A stretch of DNA of 32,000 nt from Rhodocyclaceae bacterium (GTDB taxonomy: Bacteria; Pseudomonadota; Gammaproteobacteria; Burkholderiales; Rhodocyclaceae): the NCBI GenBank assembly GCA_018262775.1, contig JADFDU010000033.1, positions 1 through 32,000 of the forward strand, given 5' to 3'. Made by a program: the position numbers and the translations under genes. The stretch's first letter is position 1. The number at the start of each line of letters is the position of its first letter. Shown in pieces: positions 6,429 to 13,506 of the stretch. The notes under the pieces were generated by a model. That model ran no database searches. It was not told the origin of the DNA and was given only the letters and a program-made list of their open reading frames with translations.

Positions 6429-7105
6429 TGGCCTTGCCGATACGCGCAGTCCTCATCGACCTCGACGGCACACTGCTCGACACCGTTCCCGATCTCGCCG
6501 ACGCGGCCAACGCCATGCTCGCCGAGTTGGGGCGGCTGACTTTGCCGGTCGACACCATCCGCGAATTCGTCGGCAAGGGAATCCCAAACCTCGTTGGCCG
6601 CTGCCTCGGCTATCCGGGCGAATCGAATGCGCCGGATGCCCTCGAAGCGCTGGCCGTTTTCAAGCGCCATTACGCCGCCGTCAATGGCCGCAACACGCGC
6701 ATCTACCCCGGTGTGATTGAGGGCCTTGAAGCCATGCGCGCCGCCGGCCTGAAGACCGCTTGCGTCACCAACAAGGCCGCCGCCTTTACCGGCCCCCTGC
6801 TCGAAACCACCGGCCTGTCCGCACTCCTCGACATGACGGTGAGCGGCGACACCCTGGCGGAAAAGAAGCCGCACCCGCTGCCTTTCCTGCACCTCTGCGA
6901 ACGCTTCGGCATCGCCCCCGCTGAGGCGCTGGTCATCGGCGATTCGCGCAACGATGTCGCCGGCGCGCGCGCGGCGGGTTGCCCGGTGGTCTGCGTGCCC
7001 TATGGCTACAGCGAAGGCGAGGATGTGCGCGATCTCGGTGCCGATGCTATAGTGGGCACCCTCGAGGAGGTAGCCAGGTTGGCCATTCAGGCCGGGTGCC
7101 AATGA
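6428..7105 (+). CDS. gph: Phosphoglycolate phosphatase (HAD superfamily)
   Basis: ATG 6428 overlaps the rpe stop (TGATG). HAD motif I LIDLDGTLLDT, later KKPHP and GDSRNDV motifs. Classic rpe-gph pairing. Confidence 0.85.
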   Translation: MALPIRAVLIDLDGTLLDTVPDLADAANAMLAELGRLTLPVDTIREFVGKGIPNLVGRCLGYPGESNAPDALEALAVFKRHYAAVNGRNTRIYPGVIEGLEAMRAAGLKTACVTNKAAAFTGPLLETTGLSALLDMTVSGDTLAEKKPHPLPFLHLCERFGIAPAEALVIGDSRNDVAGARAAGCPVVCVPYGYSEGEDVRDLGADAIVGTLEEVARLAIQAGCQ

Positions 7106-7108
7106 GTT

Positions 7109-7177
7109 GTCATTCCCGCGAAAGCGGGAATTCACAATACGAATCGAAGGCTGGATTCCCGCTTTCGCGGGAATGAC
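7109..7177. repeat. REP-like palindromic element: perfect 23-bp inverted repeat, each arm itself a hairpin
   Basis: gtcattcccgcgaaagcgggaat (7109-7131) is the exact reverse complement of attcccgctttcgcgggaatgac (7155-7177), with a 23-nt spacer. It produces the familiar spurious peptides SFPRKRE / VIPAKAGIQ...FRGND in ORFs 7107..7301 and 6380..7192. Confidence 0.85.
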
Positions 7178-7202
7178 GGGTAATACTGGCATTGTGATCT
7201 AC

Positions 7203-7301
7203 ATGAACTTGAAACGCGTGAGGAAATTTGCCCCGAAGGAAATCCCCTTGGGGGACGCCGTAGGCGGGGAGGCCTGGCCCTGGCGTCGCTTGCCTGACTG
7301 A
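7203..7301 (+). CDS. Candidate trp leader peptide ([32 protein letters not shown])
   Basis: 32-codon ORF directly upstream of trpE, with two Trp codons within three codons (TGG 7275, TGG 7281) near its end. No clear SD before ATG 7203. Confidence 0.35.
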
Positions 7302-7314
7302 ACGTCGCAAGCGG

Positions 7315-7348
7315 CGGGCGCTTTTGTGTAGTTTGCGCCCGTGTTTTT
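7315..7348 (+). terminator. Candidate attenuator terminator between leader ORF and trpE
   Basis: Stem cgggcgc (7315-7321) / gcgcccg (7335-7341), 13-nt loop, then tgttttt (7342-7348), 24 nt before trpE ATG 7372. Confidence 0.4.
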
Positions 7349-7371
7349 CCCGAGTTTCAAGTAGTGGAGTC

Positions 7372-8859
7372 ATGATGACCGAAGCCGCATTCAACGCGTT
7401 GGCCGCGCAGGGCTATAACCGTATTCCGGTGACCCTGGAAACCTTCGCCGACCTCGATACCCCCCTTTCGATCTACCTCAAGCTGGCCACTGGTAACAGT
7501 GGCGCCTATACCTACCTGCTCGAGTCCGTGCAAGGTGGCGAGCGCTTCGGCCGCTATTCCTTCATCGGCCTGTCCGCGCCGACGCGCATCGCCGCCTATG
7601 GCCGCGACGTCATGGTGCTCACCGGCCACCGCATCGCCGAGCGGCGCGACGATTGTGATCCGCTCGCCTTCGTCGGCGAGTACATGGCGCGCTTCCGGCT
7701 CGCGCCGCGCGCCGGCCTGCCGCGCTTCTGCGGCGGCCTCGTCGGCTGCTTCGGCTACGACACCGTGCACTACATCGAGCCGAAGCTGGCAAAGACGCAA
7801 AAGCCCGACGCGCTCGGCACGCCCGACGTGCTGCTGCTCCTCTCCGAGGAAATTGCCGTTGTCGACAACCTCTCCGGCAAGCTGACCCTGGTGGTGTATG
7901 CCGAGCCCGGCGTGCCCGGCGCCTTCAAGCGCGCCCAGACGCGGCTGAAGGAACTGCTGGTGCGGCTGCGTGAACCCGTGGCCATTCCCCCCGAACAGCC
8001 CGTTGCGTCGCAGGCGGCTGTCTCTTCATTCGGCGAGGAACCCTTCAAGCAGGCCGTGGCGCGCGCCAAGCAATACATCGTCGACGGCGACATCATGCAG
8101 GTGGTGCTCTCGCAGCGCATGTCGAAACCCTTCGCCGCCACGCCGCTGGCGCTCTACCGCGCGCTGCGCACCCTCAATCCCTCGCCCTACATGTTCTACT
8201 TCGACTTCGAGGACTTCCACGTCGTCGGCGCCTCGCCGGAGATCCTCGTTCGCCTGGAGGACGGCAGCGTCACCCTGCGGCCGATCGCCGGCACGCGTCG
8301 GCGCGGCAAGACGGTCGAGGAAGACGAGGCCCTCGCCGCCGAACTGCTCACCGACGAAAAGGAACGCGCCGAGCACCTCATGCTGCTCGACCTCGGCCGC
8401 AACGACGTCGGCCGCGTGGCGCAGACCGGCAGCGTCAAGGTGACCGAGCAGTTCGTCATCGAGCGCTACTCGCACGTGATGCACATCGTCTCCAGCGTCG
8501 AAGGCAGGCTGAAGCCCGAGCTGGATGCGCTAGCGGTGCTGCGCGCCACCTTCCCCGCCGGCACGGTGTCCGGTGCGCCCAAAGTGCGGGCGATGGAGGT
8601 CATTGACGAGCTGGAGCCGGTCAAGCGCGGCCTCTACGCCGGCGCCGTCGGCTACCTCGGCTTCCACGGCGACATGGACCTCGCCATCGCCATCCGCACC
8701 GCCGTCGTCAAGGACGGCCACATCCACGTCCAAGCCGGCGCCGGCATCGTCGCCGATTCCGACCCGGCCGCGGAATGGCAGGAGACGCAGAGCAAGGCCC
8801 GCGCCCAACTGCGCGCCGCCGAAATGGCCGAGTCGGGCCTCGATACGCGCTTGGATTGA
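7372..8859 (+). CDS. trpE: Anthranilate synthase component I
   Basis: ATG 7372 preceded by GGAG (7366-7369). [28 protein letters not shown], and the C-terminal GAVGYLGF...AIRT...[10 protein letters not shown] chorismate-binding signature. Confidence 0.95.
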
Positions 8860-8860
8860 A

Positions 8861-9331
8861 CCGCATTCAACACAGAGGGCACAGAGGTACAGAGAACACA
8901 GAGATGGAAGACAATGTCCTTTCCGGTCAGGTGATTGGCGCCGCGATTGAAGTGCATCGGGTTCTGGGCCCGGGGCTGCTTGAGTCGGCCTATGAGCTGG
9001 CGCTGGAGCGAGAGCTCCGGCTGCTCGGGCTCGACGTTCTTCGCCAGGTGCCGGTCCCGCTTCAGTACAAAGGTGCGAACCTTGGGGACGGATTTCGCAT
9101 CGACATTCTCGTGAGCGGGTTGCTGCTGGTCGAGATCAAGGCAGTCGAACAGCTTGCGCCTTTGCACGAAGCCCAGCTATTGACCTATTTGCGCTTGACC
9201 GGCAAGCGGCATGGGTTGCTCATCAATTTCAACGTCTCGGCGCTCAAGAACGGGGTCAAACGGGTGGTAAATGGATACTAGATTTTTCTCTGTGATCTCT
9301 GTGCCTCCGTGTCCTCTGTGTTTAAAGAGGT
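8861..9331. mobile_element. CACAGAG-repeat palindromic element, cargo-bearing copy (arms 8861-8903 and 9282-9331 flank the GxxExxY gene)
   Basis: Left arm caaCACAGAGGgCACaGAGGtACAGAGAaCACAGAG. The reverse complement of the right arm is aaaCACAGAGGaCACgGAGGcACAGAGAtCACAGAG. The same arms occur back-to-back at 9910-10022 and 11078-11180. Confidence 0.6.
8904..9281 (+). CDS. GxxExxY family protein (PD-(D/E)xK nuclease fold)
   Basis: 125 aa from ATG 8904. GLLESAY is the GxxExxY motif. FRIDILV...LLLVEIKAV fits D...ExK nuclease catalytic spacing. In-frame TTG 8856 overlapping the trpE stop is an alternative start. Confidence 0.85.
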   Translation: MEDNVLSGQVIGAAIEVHRVLGPGLLESAYELALERELRLLGLDVLRQVPVPLQYKGANLGDGFRIDILVSGLLLVEIKAVEQLAPLHEAQLLTYLRLTGKRHGLLINFNVSALKNGVKRVVNGY

Positions 9332-9338
9332 TCCCCCC

Positions 9339-9902
9339 ATGCTCCTGATGATCGACAACTACGACTCCTTCACCTACAACCTGGTGCAGTATTTCGGCGA
9401 GCTGGATGAGGAGGTGCGCGTCTTCCGCAATGACGAAATTTCGGTTGAGGGCATTGTCGCGCTCAAGCCCGATCGCATCGTCGTCTCCCCCGGTCCCTGT
9501 TCGCCCGCCGAGGCCGGCATCTCGGTGGCGGTGATCCGGGCGTTTGCCGGCAAGGTTCCGTTGCTGGGCGTCTGCCTCGGCCACCAATGCATCGGCGCCG
9601 CTTTCGGCGGCAAGGTCGTGCATGCCCGCCAACTCATGCACGGCAAGACATCATTGGTGCAGCATGCCGGCGCCGGCGTTTTCCGCGACCTGCCGAATCC
9701 CTTCACCGCCACGCGCTACCACTCGCTCGCCATCGAGCGTGCCTCGCTGCCGGATTGCCTTGAAGTGACGGCGTGGACCGACGACGGCGAGATCATGGGC
9801 GTGCGCCATCGCGAATTCGCTGTGGAAGGCGTGCAGTTCCACCCCGAATCCATCCGCAGCGAGCACGGCCACCGACTGTTGAAGACTTTTTTAGAGACAT
9901 GA
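9339..9902 (+). CDS. trpG: Anthranilate synthase component II (glutamine amidotransferase)
   Basis: ATG 9339 ([18 protein letters not shown]). Catalytic GVCLGHQ and FHPES. AAGAGG at 9325-9330 lies inside the repeat arm. Confidence 0.93.
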
Positions 9903-9909
9903 ACCTTGA

Positions 9910-10022
9910 CCTCTTTCAACACAGAGAGCACAGAGGCACAGAGAACACAGAGAGAGAAACGGTTTTATTCAATGTTCTTCTCTGTGCCCTCTGTGTCCCC
10001 GTGTCCTCTGTGTTGAAAGAGG
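9910..10022. repeat. CACAGAG-repeat palindromic element, cargo-less copy (113 bp)
   Basis: cctctttcaaCACAGAGaGCACAGAGGCACAGAGAACACAGAG...loop...CTCTGTGcCCTCTGTGtCCCcGTGTCCTCTGTGttgaaagagg. Begins 8 nt after the trpG stop and ends 25 nt before the trpD ATG. Confidence 0.88.
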
Positions 10023-10047
10023 TTGCTTTTATTAGGGAGTCAAAATC

Positions 10048-11073
10048 ATGATCACCCCACAGGAAGCCCTGCAGCGCACCATCGAACACCGCGAGATCTT
10101 TCATGACGAGATGCTGCATCTCATGCGCCAGATCATGGGCGGCGAGATCACGCCGCTGATGGTCGCCGCCATCCTCACCGGTCTGCGCGTGAAGAAGGAA
10201 ACCATCGGCGAGATTTCTGCTGCCGCCAAAGTGATGCGCGACCTGTGCACTCGCGTCGACACGCCCCACAACCCCCACTTCGTCGATGTCGTCGGCACCG
10301 GCGGCGATGCGTCCCACACCTTCAACATCTCCACCGCCTCGGCTTTCGTCGCCGCCGCAGCGGGCGCCACCGTCGCCAAGCACGGCAACCGCGGCGTCTC
10401 GTCGAAGTCCGGCTCAGCCGACGTGCTGGAGGCGCTCGGCGCGAAGATCGACCTGGCCGCGCCGCAGGTAGCCGAGTGCATCCAGGCCACCGGCATCGGC
10501 TTCATGTTCGCCCCCAACCATCACCCGGCCATGAAGAACGTCGCCCCGGTACGACGCGAAATGGGCGTGCGCACCATCTTCAACATCCTCGGCCCGCTGA
10601 CCAATCCGGCCGGCGCACCGAACACCCTGATGGGCGTGTTTCATCCCGACCTCGTCGGCATCCAGGTGCGCGTCATGCGCGAACTGGGCGCCGACCACGT
10701 CCTGGTGGTGTGGGGCAAGGACGGCATGGACGAGATTTCGCTTGGCGCGGCGACTCTGGTCGGCGAACTCAAGGACGGCAAGATCACCGAGTACGAAATC
10801 CACCCCGAGGACTATGGCCTGCAGATGGTCTCCAACCGTGGCCTGCGCGTCGCCGACGCCACCGAGTCGAAGGAAATGGTGCTGGAGGCGCTCGCCAACA
10901 CGCCCGGCACGCCGCGCGAGATCGTCACCCTGAACGCCGGCGCGGCGCTCTATGCGGCGAACGTCGCCGATTCGGTCGCCGACGGCATCGTTCGCGCGCG
11001 AGAGGCCATCGCCAGCGGCGCGGCGCGCGCCAAGCTCGACGCGTTCGTCAATTACACGCGGCGGTTTACTTGA
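10048..11073 (+). CDS. trpD: Anthranilate phosphoribosyltransferase
   Basis: 341 aa. [17 protein letters not shown] and [21 protein letters not shown] signatures. Confidence 0.95.
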
Positions 11074-11077
11074 GAAA

Positions 11078-11180
11078 CTCTTTCAACACGGAGGGCACAG
11101 AGGCACAGAGGACACAGAGAAGAACTTTCTCTGGATGTTCTCTGTGCTCTCTGTGCCTCTGTGTTCTCTGTGTCAAAAGC
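11078..11180. repeat. CACAGAG-repeat palindromic element, second cargo-less copy (~103 bp)
   Basis: ctctttcaaCACgGAGGGCACAGAGGCACAGAGGACACAGAG...loop...CTCTGTGctCTCTGTGCCTCTGTGttCTCTGTGtcaaaagc. Begins 5 nt after the trpD stop and ends 14 nt before the trpC ATG. Confidence 0.88.
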
Positions 11181-11194
11181 GGTTAAGGCTCCCT

Positions 11195-12112
11195 ATGTCC
11201 GACATCCTGCAGAAAATTCTCGCGGTAAAGCACGAGGAAATCGCCGCCGCGCAGGCAAAAAAGCCGCTCGCCGCCCTGCGCGCCGAGGCCGATGCGCAGT
11301 CGCTGCCGCGCGACTTCGTCGGCGCGATTCGTAAAAAAATCGGCACGAAAGTCAGCCTCGGCAACACGGCGAAATGCGCGGCGGTCATTGCCGAGATCAA
11401 GAAGGCCAGCCCCTCCAAGGGCGTCATCCGCGCCGATTTCCGCCCCGGCGAGATCGCCGCGTCCTATGCGGCCCATGGTGCTACCTGCCTGTCGGTGCTG
11501 ACAGACCGGCAGTTCTTCCAGGGCGCGCCGGAATACCTCGTCGAAGCACGCGCAGCCTGCGCGTTGCCGGTGCTGCGCAAGGATTTCATCATCGACGCCT
11601 ACCAGGTGGTCGAGGCGCGTGCGATGGGGGCTGACTGTATCCTGCTTATCGTCGCGGCCTTCCTCCCCCCTCACCCCAACCCTCTCCCCCGCGGGGGAGA
11701 GGGAGCAACAATCACCCCCTCTCCCCTCGGGGAGAGGGCAGGGGTGAGGGGGGCAGTCGCTCAAATGCGCGAACTCGAAACCCTCGCCCACGAATTCGGC
11801 ATGGCCGTACTGGTCGAGGCGCACGACGACGCCGAACTCGACCTCGCCCTAGCGCTCAAAACCCCGCTCATCGGCATCAACAACCGCAACCTGCGCACCT
11901 TTGCAGTCTCGCTACAGACGACCCTCGATCTGCTGGCACGCATCTCTGCCGATCGCATCGTCGTCACCGAGTCGGGCATCCTGGCGCCTGCCGACGTCAC
12001 CCTCATGCGCGGCCATGGCGTGAATGTCTTCCTCGTCGGCGAGGCCTTCATGCGTGCGCCCGACCCGGGTGCGGAACTGGCTCGGCTGTTCGAACAGGGG
12101 GATTCGTCATGA
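11195..12112 (+). CDS. trpC: Indole-3-glycerol phosphate synthase (carries an in-frame repeat insertion)
   Basis: ATG 11195 ([16 protein letters not shown]). [18 protein letters not shown] and [10 protein letters not shown] motifs. At 305 aa it is about 35-40 aa longer than typical TrpC. Confidence 0.92.
11665..11753. repeat. G/C-rich nested palindromic (REP-like) element embedded in the trpC reading frame
   Basis: Outer inverted repeat cccccctcacccc (11665-11677) / ggggtgagggggg (11741-11753). Two inner hairpins: ccctctcccc-cgcg-ggggagaggg and ccctctcccc-tc-ggggagaggg. Translates in frame as [29 protein letters not shown]. Confidence 0.8.
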
Positions 12113-12245
12113 CAGAGACCATCCCATTGAGTAGCGTGAGTCGCAGCGCACGGCCTGATTGATGGGTAGCTGATGGGTAGCAATTACGCAGTTGAACTCA
12201 TGCGGGCGTGGTGCCAGCTACCGCGTGGCTTGTCCTCGGTTTCAG

Positions 12246-12572
12246 CTACGCCAATCCCATCCAGACAGCCAAAGCGCGGCTCACGCGCAGGACCGTCTCG
12301 TCCTCAAGGCGTCCGAAAGCCTGGCCCAGTTTGTCGCGCCTGACGGATACGATCTTGTCTACCATCACTTGCGATACCTCGCGCAAGCCGTTTGCGGCGG
12401 AAGGTTCGACGGTAATGCGGAACAGCGGGGCGCTGCGGATTTCTCCAGTCAGCGGCGCCAGCGTCACGCTCGGGTGCGTTTCGTTGAAGAGATCGGATTG
12501 AATCACCAGCGCCGGCCGTGGCTTGCCAAGGTCGCCCTGCAGTGCGACCGCCACCAAGTCGCCGCGCCTCAT
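12246..12572 (-). CDS. mazF: Type II toxin, PemK/MazF family endoribonuclease
   Basis: ATG at 12572 (MRRGDLVAVALQGDLGKPRPALVIQSD...), 108 aa. RGD(L/I)...KxRPxxV(I) N-terminus typical of MazF/PemK. Start overlaps the upstream antitoxin stop by 4 nt. Confidence 0.85.
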   Translation of the reverse strand: MRRGDLVAVALQGDLGKPRPALVIQSDLFNETHPSVTLAPLTGEIRSAPLFRITVEPSAANGLREVSQVMVDKIVSVRRDKLGQAFGRLEDETVLRVSRALAVWMGLA

Positions 12573-12793
12573 TTCCAATCCTCGATATCCCTGAGGGTGG
12601 CATCCAGTTCGTCGAGGATGGTCTGTTCGGCCGCGTCGTTCGCCACCAGGAGGGATTGACGCCGGCATTCCTCGGCAAATTTCGGTGAGCGGGTATCCGG
12701 TACCCAAATCTGGATCGGCCTGAATCCCTGAGCGCGCATTTTGTCGCGGTAACGGCTGACGCTTTCCCGCGCGGGCTGAGACGAATTTCGCAT
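12569..12793 (-). CDS. mazE: MazE-family antitoxin (DUF3018-like)
   Basis: 74 aa. YRDKMRAQGFRPIQIWVPDTRSPKFAEECRRQSLLVA resembles the MazE-like/DUF3018 pattern. 4-nt overlap with the toxin gene. Confidence 0.72.
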   Translation of the reverse strand: MRNSSQPARESVSRYRDKMRAQGFRPIQIWVPDTRSPKFAEECRRQSLLVANDAAEQTILDELDATLRDIEDWK

Positions 12794-12908
12794 GGCATTT
12801 CCTTTGGTTATTCAGTTCATGCCATATTACATGAAATAAGGCATGAAGGAATCCTGCCGCATCTGGAAACCGTGGTCTGAGCTAGCCCGGTTTGATGGAA
12901 TATCCTTC

Positions 12909-13190
12909 TCAGCCGAAAAGCTCGCTATGAGAGCCAAGACGGGCCAGCCGCAGGGTGTCGCTGTCCGATTTGCGGTAGATCAGCAGTAAATCGGGCTTGA
13001 CGTGGCACTCACGGTAGCCAGCCCAATCGCCGCTCAAATCATGGTCGCGGTGTTTTGGTTCCAACGGCTGGCCGTTCGCCAGAGCCGCCAAGACCGGGAC
13101 CAGGTCAGCATCGAGTGTTGTCCGGTGCTGACCTTTCGCCTCGCGCTTGTAATCTCGCTTGAATGCCGTTGAGCGGTCAATCGTCCGCAT
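12909..13190 (-). CDS. yafQ: Type II toxin, YafQ/RelE family mRNA interferase
   Basis: 93 aa. DHDLSGDWAGYRECHVKPDLLLIYRK...RLGSHSELFG parallels E. coli YafQ DHPLQGSWKGYRDAHVEPDWILIYK...RTGTHAALFG. Confidence 0.87.
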   Translation of the reverse strand: MRTIDRSTAFKRDYKREAKGQHRTTLDADLVPVLAALANGQPLEPKHRDHDLSGDWAGYRECHVKPDLLLIYRKSDSDTLRLARLGSHSELFG

Positions 13191-13443
13191 GCAAGTCAGC
13201 CATTAGTGCCTCAATGCCGGCAAAGCGCTTGCCCTTTCCGGCTTCAAGCTCAGCAATGGCCTTGCGGGTGGTCGCGTTCGGTACCTTGACCTCGAATGGC
13301 AAGCGGCGCTCGTCTGCTACGCGCAGCATCAGCAAGCGGATGGCGTCAGAAATGGACAAGCCCATCGCCTCCAGCGCATCGGCAGCGCGTTCCTTGGTGG
13401 CGGTATCAATGCGGGCGCGAACGTAGGTGTCGGCGGTGCTCAT
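13177..13443 (-). CDS. dinJ: RelB/DinJ family antitoxin
   Basis: ATG at 13443 (MSTADTYVRARIDTATKERAADALEAMGLSISDAIRLLM) parallels DinJ FVRARIDEDLKNQAADVLAGMGLTISDLVR. 14-nt overlap with yafQ. Confidence 0.87.
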   Translation of the reverse strand: MSTADTYVRARIDTATKERAADALEAMGLSISDAIRLLMLRVADERRLPFEVKVPNATTRKAIAELEAGKGKRFAGIEALMADLHADD

Positions 13444-13477
13444 GATGAGTTTCTCCCTAGGGGGTTCTTGAATTTCA

Positions 13478-13506
13478 ATTGTAGTCACAACGAGACCACG
13501 GCGCAA
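13478..13506 (-). promoter_or_regulatory. Candidate sigma70 promoter/operator of dinJ-yafQ
   Basis: On the minus strand: TTGCGC (13506-13501), 17 nt, TACAAT (13483-13478). The spacer/-10 contains the palindrome TTGTgactACAA, a plausible autoregulatory operator. Confidence 0.35.

Follow-up and report, generated by a model that had tools for sequence, protein, structure and literature searches.

The window (the whole 32,000-nt stretch of DNA analysed here) carries trpE (anthranilate synthase component I; 7378-8859; TIGR00564, E 5.3e-171), trpG (glutamine amidotransferase of anthranilate synthase; 9339-9902; TIGR00566, E 3.8e-79), trpD (anthranilate phosphoribosyltransferase; 10048-11073; TIGR01245, E 2.3e-121) and trpC (indole-3-glycerol phosphate synthase; 11195-12112; NF001373, E 6.8e-115, matched in two stretches), all on the plus strand. 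Within trpC there is an unrelated in-frame palindrome. Between trpE and trpG lies a long palindrome with a gene for a GxxExxY protein of the PD-(D/E)XK nuclease type in its loop (8904-9281, plus strand), which confirms an earlier observation on this locus. By its sequence organization, the stretch from 8859 to 9332 belongs, as a loaded copy, to a widespread class of palindromic cassettes, whose arms consist of 3-5 tandem 8-9-nt units and a short outer stem.

The repeat finder reported arms at 8849-8904 and 9287-9342 (56 nt, 80% complementary, spacing 382 nt); the actual palindrome comprises 8859-8904 and 9287-9332, which pair with each other in the minimum-free-energy fold. The inverted copies that the initial annotation had placed at 8868-8903 and 9289-9324 are present, but the true arms reach further outward. 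Each arm is built of four tandem 8-9-nt units and an outer stem. The units read CACAGAGgg, CACAGAGgt, ACAGAGaa and CACAGAG on the left, and CTCTGTGat, CTCTGTGc, CTCCGTGtc and CTCTGTG, followed by the outer stem, on the right. The outer stem is AACCGCATTCAA in the left arm, where it is anti-SD-like, and TTTAAAGAGGTT in the right arm, where it carries the trpG SD (AAGAGG) 7 nt upstream of the trpG ATG. The fit with the surrounding and enclosed genes is tight: the left outer stem meets the TGA stop of trpE (8857-8859) with its first base, the last left-arm unit directly adjoins the nuclease ATG, and six nucleotides separate the nuclease stop codon from the first CTCTGTG. The nuclease gene thus exactly fills the palindrome loop, as had been claimed.

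The arms are not a chance repeat. The window contains 21 CACAGAG heptamers where 3.6 would be expected, a count that none of 100 shuffles reached, and 20 of the 21 occurrences fall within the loaded cassette and two empty hairpins described below. The loaded copy has a fold z-score of -5.4, with the arms pairing across the gene, and a comparison of its orthologues revealed double compensatory changes at 12 of the 38 arm pairs. Direct inspection of the Rhodocyclales junctions, to which this reading of the SD is confined (the automatic finder was misled by GTGs inside the CTCTGTG units), placed the right-outer-stem sequence GAAAGAGGT(T/A) 5-9 nt before the trpG ATG in all orthologues, and its complement after the trpE stop. 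G.U versus A.C asymmetry, by which the functional strand might have been found, was absent (74 versus 69 G.U pairs), and specific selection on the sense RNA is therefore not demonstrated. A search of Rfam with the trpE-trpG element at E values up to 1 returned sub-threshold look-alikes of miRNA hairpins and no rRNA or other family.

The nuclease reading frame runs from the ATG at 8904 to the TAG at 9279-9281 and encodes 125 amino acids. Its product matches the TIGR04256 'GxxExxY protein' profile (E 2.6e-41, 140.6 bits; cutoff 35) and PF13366, PDDEXK_3 (E 7.2e-40, 136.4 bits; cutoff 22). Both the GxxExxY motif, G24-L-L-E27-S-A-Y30, and the nuclease signature, D67...E77-I-K79, are intact as initially noted; in an alignment of 25 sequences from many phyla, G24, E27, Y30, D67 and K79 are invariant and E77 is nearly so. 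An AlphaFold2 (AF2) model built from a deeper alignment reached a pLDDT of 95, and its nearest structures were the cores of the DNA nucleases Cas4 and lambda/alkaline exonuclease (probability up to 1.0, TM 0.48-0.56); an earlier model from a shallow alignment had a pLDDT of 63, and its Foldseek matches were set aside. A sequence search of the PDB with the nuclease gave zero matches, a PHROGs search gave no meaningful match, and PADLOC found no defence system for it, just weak similarity to the Cas4 core. The protein is under strong purifying selection, with dN/dS among orthologues of about 0.1 (median 0.106) and dS up to saturation.

The nuclease gene has no canonical SD of its own. Its dependence on trp transcription, proposed in the initial annotation, is plausible because no sigma-70-like promoter was found in 7000-12300. 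The accompanying suggestion of a TTG start at 8856 that overlaps the trpE stop is unlikely, since an ATG or GTG is kept at the arm edge in all orthologues and the N termini of the family align there.

Two cargo-less hairpins with the same arms lie downstream, in agreement with the two empty copies first reported. One occupies the trpG|trpD spacer (9909-10023; arms 9909-9953 and 9979-10023, loop 25 nt) and the other the trpD|trpC spacer (11075-11184; arms 11075-11121 and 11138-11184, loop 16 nt). The repeat finder gave arms of 45 nt (84%) for the first and 47 nt (81%) for the second, and fold z-scores were -10.5 on the plus and -11.2 on the minus strand for the first and -9.1 and -8.5 for the second. 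Their presence varies among relatives: the trpG|trpD hairpin is present at loci L011, L022, L023 and L173 and absent at L014, L016, L019, L021, L024 and L046, and the trpD|trpC hairpin is orthologous at L011, L012 and L023 and absent at L014, L016 and L022. At orthologous junctions, all units of three empty hairpins are CGCAAAG in L011 and CACAGAG in L173, a difference that points to conversion or overwriting; the loaded copy retained its units where these empty hairpins changed theirs. Of the two marks of a MITE, terminal inverted repeats are present in the cargo-less copies and a target-site duplication was not recognisable; filled and empty junctions are too diverged to compare. We rejected a trp attenuator or terminator as an explanation because the same hairpins are also found at rpe|gph and in fab, radA and phage operons; moreover, the long stems are not followed by a T-run.

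To place the loaded copy in time, we compared trpE|trpG junctions among relatives. Orthologous loaded copies are common to at least 17 Rhodocyclales-like contigs, and among the orthologues compared we saw none of the GxxExxY genes without arms. This copy is old and has been inherited vertically for a long time, with compensatory changes in its arms. Element-free trpE|trpG spacers of at most 30 nt were found at 33 of the 57 scorable betaproteobacterial junctions, and the ancestral junction is tight. The element is sporadic at this conserved site, being found in the Rhodocyclales-like set and at L203 and L222, and relatives have the uninterrupted form. At L203 the junction holds a distantly related GxxExxY gene (55% identity) with different ends, and elsewhere in Betaproteobacteria the same junction bears various palindromes and small genes. 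Other small selfish modules sit at neighbouring junctions of relatives, namely Phd-PIN in trpG|trpD, HepT/MNT and MazEF. Throughout the divergence of these species (dS 0.6 to above 2), the loaded copy and its empty neighbours have lain 0.6-1.8 kb from each other, with no conversion and no filling of the empty ones. There is also no sign of recent copying, as identical proteins were each found in one genomic context only.

The linkage of GxxExxY genes to such arms extends across the family. Inverted arrays of tandem CACAGAG-like units bracket GxxExxY genes from at least 10 phyla, among them genes of Beta-, Alpha- and Gammaproteobacteria, Bacteroidota, Planctomycetota, Gemmatimonadota and Thermodesulfobacteriota. 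When we tabulated independent loci from many phyla, about 19 of 25 were bracketed in this way, three more (L025, L027 and L038) sat between complete hairpins, and L029 and L031 had no arms. In many phyla the coding sequence occupies the loop with nucleotide precision. The type of arm unit tracks the protein clade: four CATGAAG-armed genes from four phyla cluster together, and only 9 of 10,626 four-member subsets are equally similar. Across phyla whose proteins are just ~50% identical, the cassettes retain the CAC(A/G)GAG heptamer and the TCACC...GGTGA ends, and in the sample examined the cargo within CACAGAG-type arms was always a GxxExxY gene. At L027 a GxxExxY gene is accompanied by CACAGAG hairpins and a four-helix-bundle gene by AAGGCTAAGG-type arms. 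Several phyla have no single master copy but many GxxExxY paralogues, located at fixed sites. The family comprises 20,895 clusters at 50% identity (E below 1e-3); a plasmid search yielded only 6 matches, mostly on chromid-like replicons. In annotated genes, the arms give rise to spurious ORF extensions or fusions, for example 'HRGHRGTENTE'. The searchable literature contained only a few incidental mentions of GxxExxY/PDDEXK_3 proteins and no published description of their association with hairpins.

The arms also occur in contigs without any such gene. A survey of more than 120 arm-bearing stretches of phage-like contigs (1.03 Mb) turned up no GxxExxY gene, and neither the whole viral collection nor the INPHARED phages contained one. 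What looked like larger cargo between arm pairs in these contigs turned out to be ordinary phage genes flanked by neighbouring hairpins rather than genes in a loop. In 25 of 43 cases the hairpins fit snugly between co-directional ORFs, and at L158, L063, L118 and L108 a hairpin loop contains a second hairpin of a different unit type. Integron attC sites were rejected as an identity for the element, as its TCACC/GGTGA ends do not fit RYYYAAC/GTTRRRY and the gene lies inside the palindrome.

A second, unrelated protein family uses the same arrangement. Genes for four-helix-bundle proteins (23S_rRNA_IVP) lie between housekeeping genes in the same kind of tandem-unit hairpins. At the Caminicella locus L277 the units on the two sides of such a gene are non-complementary, so the bracket is not universal in that family.

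The explanation that we favour, tentatively and at somewhat short of even confidence, is that the element is an IVS-type hairpin cassette residing in an mRNA operon, and that heptamer-array palindromes are the most likely target of its nuclease, in a homing or maintenance role. We infer the RNA-level behaviour and the nuclease substrate as follows. The cassette would be transcribed by read-through from the trp operon, and the arms would then pair across the gene to form a stem of ~45 bp whose top covers the nuclease AUG. At the base of this stem, the anti-SD-like sequence just behind the trpE stop would pair with the trpG SD; because that sequence lies directly behind the stop, a ribosome terminating on trpE could open the stem base, which would keep trpE and trpG translationally coupled and the insertion harmless. 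The stem is probably a substrate of RNase III, as in IVSs. On DNA, the nuclease may cut cargo-less or collapsed copies, with recombinational repair then retaining or copying the cassette and homogenising the repeat family. A homing or maintenance role is the most likely one for the enzyme, in preference to that of a classical transposase. As a broader proposition, which we regard as possible but on the doubtful side, GxxExxY proteins in general would be sequence- and structure-specific endonucleases that recognise their own tandem-heptamer palindromes and drive the copying, retention and homogenisation of these repeats.

A different account, which we judge less likely than the favoured one, treats the hairpin as a generic expression or insulation device and the nuclease as unrelated cargo with a cellular or defensive job of its own: it might serve in DNA repair or against phages, or be an addiction-type toxin. 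By way of RNase III processing, a stabilised mRNA and restored translational coupling, the hairpin would let small promoter-less genes survive in housekeeping operons, and the correlation between gene and arms would reflect common descent of the linked DNA. Such a device would readily explain why an unrelated non-nuclease family occupies the same architecture, why this architecture recurs in 23S IVSs processed by RNase III, why empty hairpins lie between co-directional genes (phage genes included) with no GxxExxY gene nearby, and why the outer stem supplies the downstream SD. The strong purifying selection on the nuclease, over a long time at one fixed position, is what a host-useful or addictive gene would show, and the Phd-PIN, HepT/MNT and MazEF modules at relatives' neighbouring junctions are in keeping with this account. 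However, structure alone would not conserve CAC(A/G)GAG and the tandem units across phyla when the proteins are at ~50% identity and dS is saturated, and CACAGAG-type arms held GxxExxY cargo every time in the sample examined. The missing sense-strand G.U bias and the PADLOC result, weak Cas4-core similarity in place of a defence-system match, also tell against it.

The initial annotation had proposed that GxxExxY is a dedicated RAYT-like enzyme that replicates the cargo-less doublets in trans, which would make the system a non-HUH analogue of REPIN-RAYT. We consider this improbable. Part of it stood: gene and arms form one unit, and the loaded copy is accompanied by doublets, with inverted repeat copies flanking the gene and cargo-less ones nearby. 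As with RAYTs, the loaded copy is single, vertical and under purifying selection (10.1101/2022.05.22.493013). Close relatives differ in whether a given orthologous site has an empty hairpin and in the unit type that it carries, and phage contigs contain empty hairpins too, which implies recent spread in trans. The remainder is unsupported or weakened by the non-nuclease cargo, the gene-less hairpins and the lack of conversion. Neither strand transfer nor ligation is an evident function of a minimal PD-(D/E)XK core of 125 aa, and the sister architecture holds a non-enzymatic four-helix bundle. Hairpin-rich contigs lack the gene, the CGCAAAG units of the L011 empty hairpins are unlike the arms of the resident loaded copy, and several phyla keep many paralogues at fixed sites in place of one master copy. 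The four-helix-bundle genes show that the architecture is not specific to GxxExxY, and, as this bundle is not a nuclease, the class need not depend on a cargo nuclease to propagate; mobilisation of the repeats by the nuclease found no support. Least probable is independent capture, in which a GxxExxY gene landed in a pre-existing hairpin loop acting as an insertion hot spot and has no functional relation to the arms. In its favour, the nested hairpins mark loops as common targets of insertion, palindromes and small genes of various kinds occupy trpE|trpG in different Betaproteobacteria, and the L203 gene has other ends at the same junction. Against it, in many phyla the gene takes up the loop so exactly that no space remains for termini belonging to the gene itself, arm type goes with protein clade from phylum to phylum, and no arm-less orthologue was seen at trpE|trpG.

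If the broader proposition on GxxExxY proteins is true, palindromic elements linked to a nuclease would constitute a new class that crosses phyla. It would stand as a non-HUH counterpart to REPIN-RAYT and as an mRNA-borne sister of the 23S rRNA IVSs, and the IVS proteins of the four-helix-bundle type would be a parallel cargo that binds the arms. GxxExxY/PDDEXK_3 is among the larger families without an assigned function, and its near-constant placement in heptamer arrays offers a candidate substrate and a simple biochemical test. The shared architecture ties the family to the puzzle of the nature and spread of ORF-bearing 23S IVSs, and it is found within mRNA operons as well. The anti-SD/SD outer stem offers a possible reason why 470 nt of inserted DNA can lie between translationally coupled genes of an essential operon and cause no polarity. 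This idea is relevant to how operons evolve and to how insulated gene cassettes might be designed. Knowledge of the architecture would also improve annotation.

Among known systems, the palindromic MITE-like intergenic repeats of bacteria, such as ERIC, Correia/NEMIS and BIME/REP, resemble the cargo-less copies, which are imperfect palindromes of ~110 nt in transcribed operon spacers and vary in presence among relatives. The cassettes differ from them in the tandem 8-9-nt array within each arm, the absence of a detectable target-site duplication, a loaded form that carries a non-transposase gene, and a spread across phyla. Free-standing homing genes offer a second parallel, and I-Ssp6803I is a PD-(D/E)XK homing enzyme. 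As in such genes, a small promoter-less nuclease gene is wedged between conserved genes, its presence is sporadic at an otherwise tight, conserved junction, and its insertion would split a symmetrical site. Unlike them, the nuclease gene is bracketed by long structured repeats, and one site has been kept long-term under purifying selection while the adjacent empty hairpins stay empty.

REPs in REPIN-RAYT systems carry a 5' GTAG, whereas the arms described here are tandem heptamer arrays. The two systems share an enzyme gene between inverted copies of a short palindromic repeat and many cargo-less doublets, here hairpins of ~100 nt surveyed in the 32-kb window and the fetched loci. They also share a single, vertically inherited and long-lived loaded copy (10.1101/2022.05.22.493013, 10.1101/2021.07.10.451892), at trpE|trpG in the present case; in REPIN-RAYT it is likewise under purifying selection (10.1101/2022.05.22.493013). 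The enzyme, however, is a PF13366/TIGR04256 protein with PD-(D/E)XK structural neighbours and not an IS200-like Y1 (HUH) transposase. Hairpins also occur without the gene in phage-like contigs although the loaded copy is inherited vertically, other phyla have many GxxExxY paralogues, and a second, non-enzymatic cargo family, the four-helix bundle, shares the layout.

The closest known relative is an ORF-bearing IVS rather than RAYT/REPIN, because four-helix-bundle genes and the Coxiella IVS share the architecture. The Coxiella 23S IVS has a 28-bp stem of terminal inverted repeats and 3-4 tandem heptamers, GACAGAT, that abut the ORF ATG, and it is excised by RNase III (PMC4990558). Like it, the trpE|trpG copy has a stem of terminal inverted repeats, a loop consisting of a small ORF without its own promoter or good SD, and tandem heptamers (CACAGAG in place of GACAGAT) that abut the ATG; both lie inside an essential, highly transcribed unit and are inherited vertically. 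IVSs of Coxiella, Leptospira and others, with their S23p ORF, are regarded as selfish, as the trpE|trpG cassette may be. The trpE|trpG copy differs in that it sits in an mRNA operon and not in helix 25 or 45 of 23S rRNA, and its cargo is a PF13366 nuclease and not an S23p/four-helix-bundle protein (PF05635). RNase III excision is established for the IVS, whereas the trpE|trpG cassette has a predicted stem of ~45 bp only. The Coxiella ORF is decaying, whereas the nuclease is under strong purifying selection, and the outer stem of the trpE|trpG cassette doubles as an anti-SD/SD pair for the downstream gene.

A gene for a GxxExxY nuclease lies between trpE and trpG in the window, enclosed to the nucleotide by an inverted repeat. 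The trp operon comprises trpE (ending at 8859), trpG (9339-9902), trpD (10048-11073) and trpC (11195-12112), all on the forward strand, with rpe and gph upstream and toxin-antitoxin pairs downstream. The 125-codon ORF (ATG at 8904 to TAG at 9281, forward strand) belongs clearly by profile match to both TIGR04256 ('GxxExxY protein') and Pfam PDDEXK_3, with an intact GLLESAY motif and catalytic signature (D67...E77-x-K79). Each arm (8859-8904 and 9287-9332) consists of a 12-nt outer stem and a tandem array of four units of 8-9 nt, which read CACAGAGnn in the left arm and nnCTCTGTG in the right; the ATG directly abuts the last left unit, and the stop codon is followed, after six nt, by the first right unit. 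Cargo-less hairpins with the same arms occupy the trpG-trpD (9909-10023) and trpD-trpC (11075-11184) spacers. CACAGAG occurs 21 times in the window against 3.6 expected, with 20 of the 21 in these three elements; fold z-scores of the empty hairpins are -8.5 to -11.2, whichever strand is taken, and in the minimum-free-energy fold of the 487-nt loaded segment (z -5.4) the two arms pair with the entire gene between them. Together, these counts and fold scores indicate that the arm pattern is non-random. Coordinates, counts and folds thus bear out the initial annotation, which had placed the gene exactly in the loop of a CACAGAG palindrome accompanied by two empty copies, except that the palindrome reaches further outward than it had described. 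The TTG at 8856, which it had offered as a possible start, is unlikely to serve as one, as every orthologue conserves an ATG or GTG at the edge of the arm, where the N-termini of the family also align. No promoter-like site or U-tract terminator was found at the arm elements of the window, and a search of these elements against Rfam returned no matching family.

Other repeats and toxin-antitoxin modules lie close by. An unrelated G+C-rich palindrome sits in-frame in trpC (11665-11753; CCCCCCTCACCCCAACCCTCTCCCCCGCGGGGGAGAGGG ... CCCCCTCTCCCCTCGGGGAGAGGGCAGGGGTGAGGGGGG), with 39-nt arms that are 82% complementary and about 33 added residues; the TrpC HMM match is broken around it into 1-155 and 190-290, and the insert is absent from the relative L012. 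Another palindromic repeat, in the gph-trpE gap (7100-7200; GTCATTCCCGCGAAAGCGGGAAT ... ATTCCCGCTTTCGCGGGAATGAC), reads 'IPAFAGMTG' in spurious ORFs. Small toxin-antitoxin modules cluster at the operon: downstream of trpC the window has a MazF/PemK-like pair and RelE/RelB (12246-13506), and in Ca. Desulfobacillus (L001, 11067-11761 and 13788-17369) Phd-PIN lies in the trpG-trpD gap, with MNT-HepT, MazEF, PIN and HicAB after trpC.

The nearest relatives of the window protein (70-100% identity) all belong to Rhodocyclales-like Betaproteobacteria. Comparing trpE-trpG junctions, as the initial annotation had suggested, we found the gene with the same kind of arm in Ca. Desulfobacillus denitrificans and about 16 further genomes or contigs, and a tight junction in most other Betaproteobacteria (of 57 scorable betaproteobacterial loci, 33 lack the element and have a spacer no longer than 30 nt). 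The prevalence of tight, element-free junctions indicates that the cassette is an insertion into an ancestrally tight junction, which was probably translationally coupled. Orthologue pairs range in dS from 0.2 to more than 2, with a median dN/dS of 0.106 and a maximum of 0.21. Judged from sequence, the insertion is old and its gene functional. In ten orthologues, 12 of 38 arm pairs show double changes that compensate each other and so retain pairing, and whole units switch among CACAGAG, CGCAGAG, CACGGAG and CGCAAAG in both arms. The junction was entered at least twice, since one locus, L203, carries there a distant GxxExxY gene (55% identity, nearest to an alphaproteobacterial member) with different ends (TCACC...GGTGG). 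In other Betaproteobacteria the junction is a hot spot, with contents surveyed at L244 (2870-3000), L250 (2910-3000), L192 (2920-3000), L205 and L215 (2665-3000) and L252 (2445-3000). Tandem-unit palindromes built from unrelated units occur in L244, L250 and L192; further contents include a small gene resembling chorismate mutase, another that is DUF2283-like, and a lipoprotein-like ORF with a lone CGCAAAG-type right arm after it.

Empty hairpins at neighbouring junctions are common to several relatives, yet polymorphic by junction. The trpG-trpD hairpin is present in the window, L011, L022, L023 and L173; otherwise this position holds a Phd-PIN toxin-antitoxin pair (Desulfobacillus) or a spacer of 8-12 nt (six others). 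At trpD-trpC, L022 has TGATG where its close relative L023 has a hairpin, and at rpe-gph a hairpin is found in L011, L012, L013, L173, L018 and L047, with an overlapping TGATG in the window. L173 and L011, separated by a GxxExxY dS of only 0.2, differ in all empty-hairpin units at orthologous junctions (CACAGAG versus CGCAAAG; L011 1460-1547, 5029-5120 and 6191-6282, L173 59-151 and 3582-3671), while their loaded cassettes retained CACAGAG units. This change resembles the outcome of conversion or re-insertion, with the old units overwritten, more than that of point mutation, and the pattern indicates concerted replacement of entire elements.

The GxxExxY family is large (20,895 clusters at 50% identity, E below 1e-3). 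In a locus scan of one genome per species (42 loci), inverted tandem-unit arrays bracketed about 19 of the 25 independent genes, that is, those outside the trpE-trpG orthologues, usually 0-25 nt from the start and stop codons. Three further independent loci have the reversed layout, with the gene between two complete hairpins (L038 3890-4500, L027 3590-4830 and L025 3940-4450), one has a non-tandem inverted repeat and two have none. In L038 the hairpins are near-identical 105-nt direct repeats, and in L027 the gene is followed by a duplicated 3' gene fragment and an arm. Bracketed genes were found in Rhodospirillales, Kangiellaceae, Piscirickettsiaceae, Cytophagales, Bacteroidales, Prolixibacteraceae, Balneolaceae, Gemmatimonadaceae, Planctomycetota, Thermodesulfobacteriota, Desulfobacteraceae, Hydrogenedentota, Sphingomonas and others. 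Among annotated loci, Sphingomonas has the order fabD-GxxExxY-fabG, with CGCGAAG units of which the last adjoins the ATG; gut Bacteroidaceae have radA-GxxExxY-FAD protein with the arm TCACCACAAAGtaCACAGAGtttCACAGAG...CTCAGTGaaaCTCCGTGttaCTCTGTGGTGA, a context constant in all contigs read. The CAC(A/G)GAG heptamer with TCACC...GGTGA ends persists from Betaproteobacteria to Bacteroidota despite a protein identity of only about 50%.

Arm type also goes with protein clade. Four CATGAAG-armed genes from four phyla are mutually nearest relatives, with a mean identity of 64% compared with 51% overall, a similarity reached by only 9 of the 10,626 subsets of four. Other clade-unit pairings involve CGCAGAT and ACAGGAGG. 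The CATGAAG-type unit contains ATG (L032 3971-4005, L036 3959-3990 and L041 3947-3985), so that the arm provides in-frame starts for the nuclease ORF (MKDMNHMK...). Many database GxxExxY ORFs are lengthened or fused through arm sequence. True two-domain fusions (P0121-P0135, about 270-295 aa) have a second domain lacking the D/E/K residues of the active site, which is degenerate, a hint of dimeric action in the family and of possible nickase activity in the fusions.

Arms without the gene are also frequent: a three-CACAGAG-unit pattern matched at least 120 stretches of phage-like IMG/VR contigs. Among the matches listed, most are cargo-less (TCACC-(CACAGAGnn)x3, a loop of 9-280 nt, (nnCTCTGTG)x3-GGTGA), and in 25 of 43 cases the hairpin sits snugly between co-directional long ORFs, the upstream stop falling 0-20 nt before the palindrome. 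Several hairpin contigs clearly encode phage structural proteins. In phage-like L084 (3191-3290), a cargo-less CACAGAG hairpin separates two structural genes, and its right end, GGTTAAAGAGGTTCCCCCATG, is nearly the same as the SD-bearing end at trpG in the window. The GxxExxY gene was absent from 1.03 Mb of listed arm-bearing IMG/VR stretches, and was found neither in the whole viral collection, using two near-invariant peptide patterns, nor by tblastn against 50,697 phage genomes. Hairpins are repeatedly nested, one unit type (for example, CACGAAG or CGCAGAT) in the loop of another (L158 2126-2309, L063 1399-1588, L118 1571-1848 and L108 1774-1902), so that insertion or recombination seems to favour loops.

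Because the layout resembles that of rRNA intervening sequences (IVSs), we retrieved four-helix-bundle proteins (PF05635 23S_rRNA_IVP / bAvd) with a consensus-like query and examined five chromosomal contexts. In four of the five, and for a gene in L027, promoter-less ORFs of about 120 aa are wedged between co-directional housekeeping genes (AbpE-mnmA, dprA-topA and others) within inverted arrays of tandem 7-9-nt units (L264 1090-1620, L267 1090-1700, L270 1090-1610, L273 1090-1600 and L027 7080-7700); the exception, a Firmicute Caminicella locus (L277), has no clean bracket. The architecture is that of the GxxExxY genes, but the units (AGGGTTC, CTAGC, TTAATTA, AGGATTA and AAGGCTAAGG) differ in sequence; the L027 gene shares its contig with a GxxExxY gene.

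The arms may also act in the RNA. In every orthologue the right outer stem, GAAAGAGGT(T/A), lies 5-9 nt upstream of the trpG ATG and is the sole Shine-Dalgarno (SD) sequence there; its complement, AACCGCTTTC, begins at or just past the trpE stop codon. In the predicted stem these two sequences pair with each other at the base and the nuclease AUG is paired at the top, and in other phyla the TCACC/GGTGA ends are likewise anti-SD-like and SD-like. A ribosome ending trpE would open the stem base and free the trpG SD, so that the cassette would restore trpE-trpG translational coupling over 470 nt; the long stem would be an RNase III substrate, like IVSs, and would gate nuclease expression at a low level. 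As the sense strand shows no G.U bias (74 versus 69 G.U pairs), the data do not establish selection on the RNA; palindromy of the DNA, or frequent copying, may be the stronger influence.

The nuclease itself gave a confident AF2 model (pLDDT 95), whose nearest structures are those of Cas4, lambda and alkaline exonucleases and Bax1; by this model the protein amounts to a minimal DNA-nuclease core, and no functional homologue is closer. Searches of PADLOC and PHROGs gave nothing useful for it. The heptamer is conserved across phyla, the units form tandem arrays, and unit type matches clade, down to a single contig on which two cargo families each have their own arms. These observations point to a factor, inherited along with the arrays, that recognises their sequence; the encoded nuclease is the simplest candidate. 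We therefore favour a homing or maintenance role, in which palindromes that are cargo-less or collapsed would be cut by the nuclease and then repaired by recombination with a copy bearing homologous arms, so that the cassette would be retained and the repeats homogenised. Three observations count against this role: loaded and empty copies have long coexisted, hairpin-rich phage contigs lack the gene, and the sister cargo, the four-helix bundle, is not a nuclease. The analogy with RAYT transposases and REPINs first drawn for this locus is partly supported: architecture and inheritance pattern fit it, but the enzyme class does not, and mobilisation of the repeats by the nuclease is putative.

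Our literature search, which did not extend to curated comments in family records, found no paper linking GxxExxY/PDDEXK_3 to tandem-heptamer repeats, and there is a fair chance that the cassette leads into a new class of nuclease-linked palindromic elements. Its closest known kind is the ORF-bearing 23S rRNA IVS. That of Coxiella has terminal inverted repeats forming a 28-bp stem, within which RNase III excises, and three to four tandem GACAGAT heptamers immediately 5' of the ATG of S23p, the IVS ORF product, with a poor SD; it is vertically inherited, and its origin is described as unknown, 'remnants of a transposition event' (PMC4990558). Given these features and the bracketed four-helix-bundle genes, the window element is best filed as an IVS-type hairpin cassette, differing from the rRNA form in residing in an mRNA operon and in carrying a nuclease in place of S23p.
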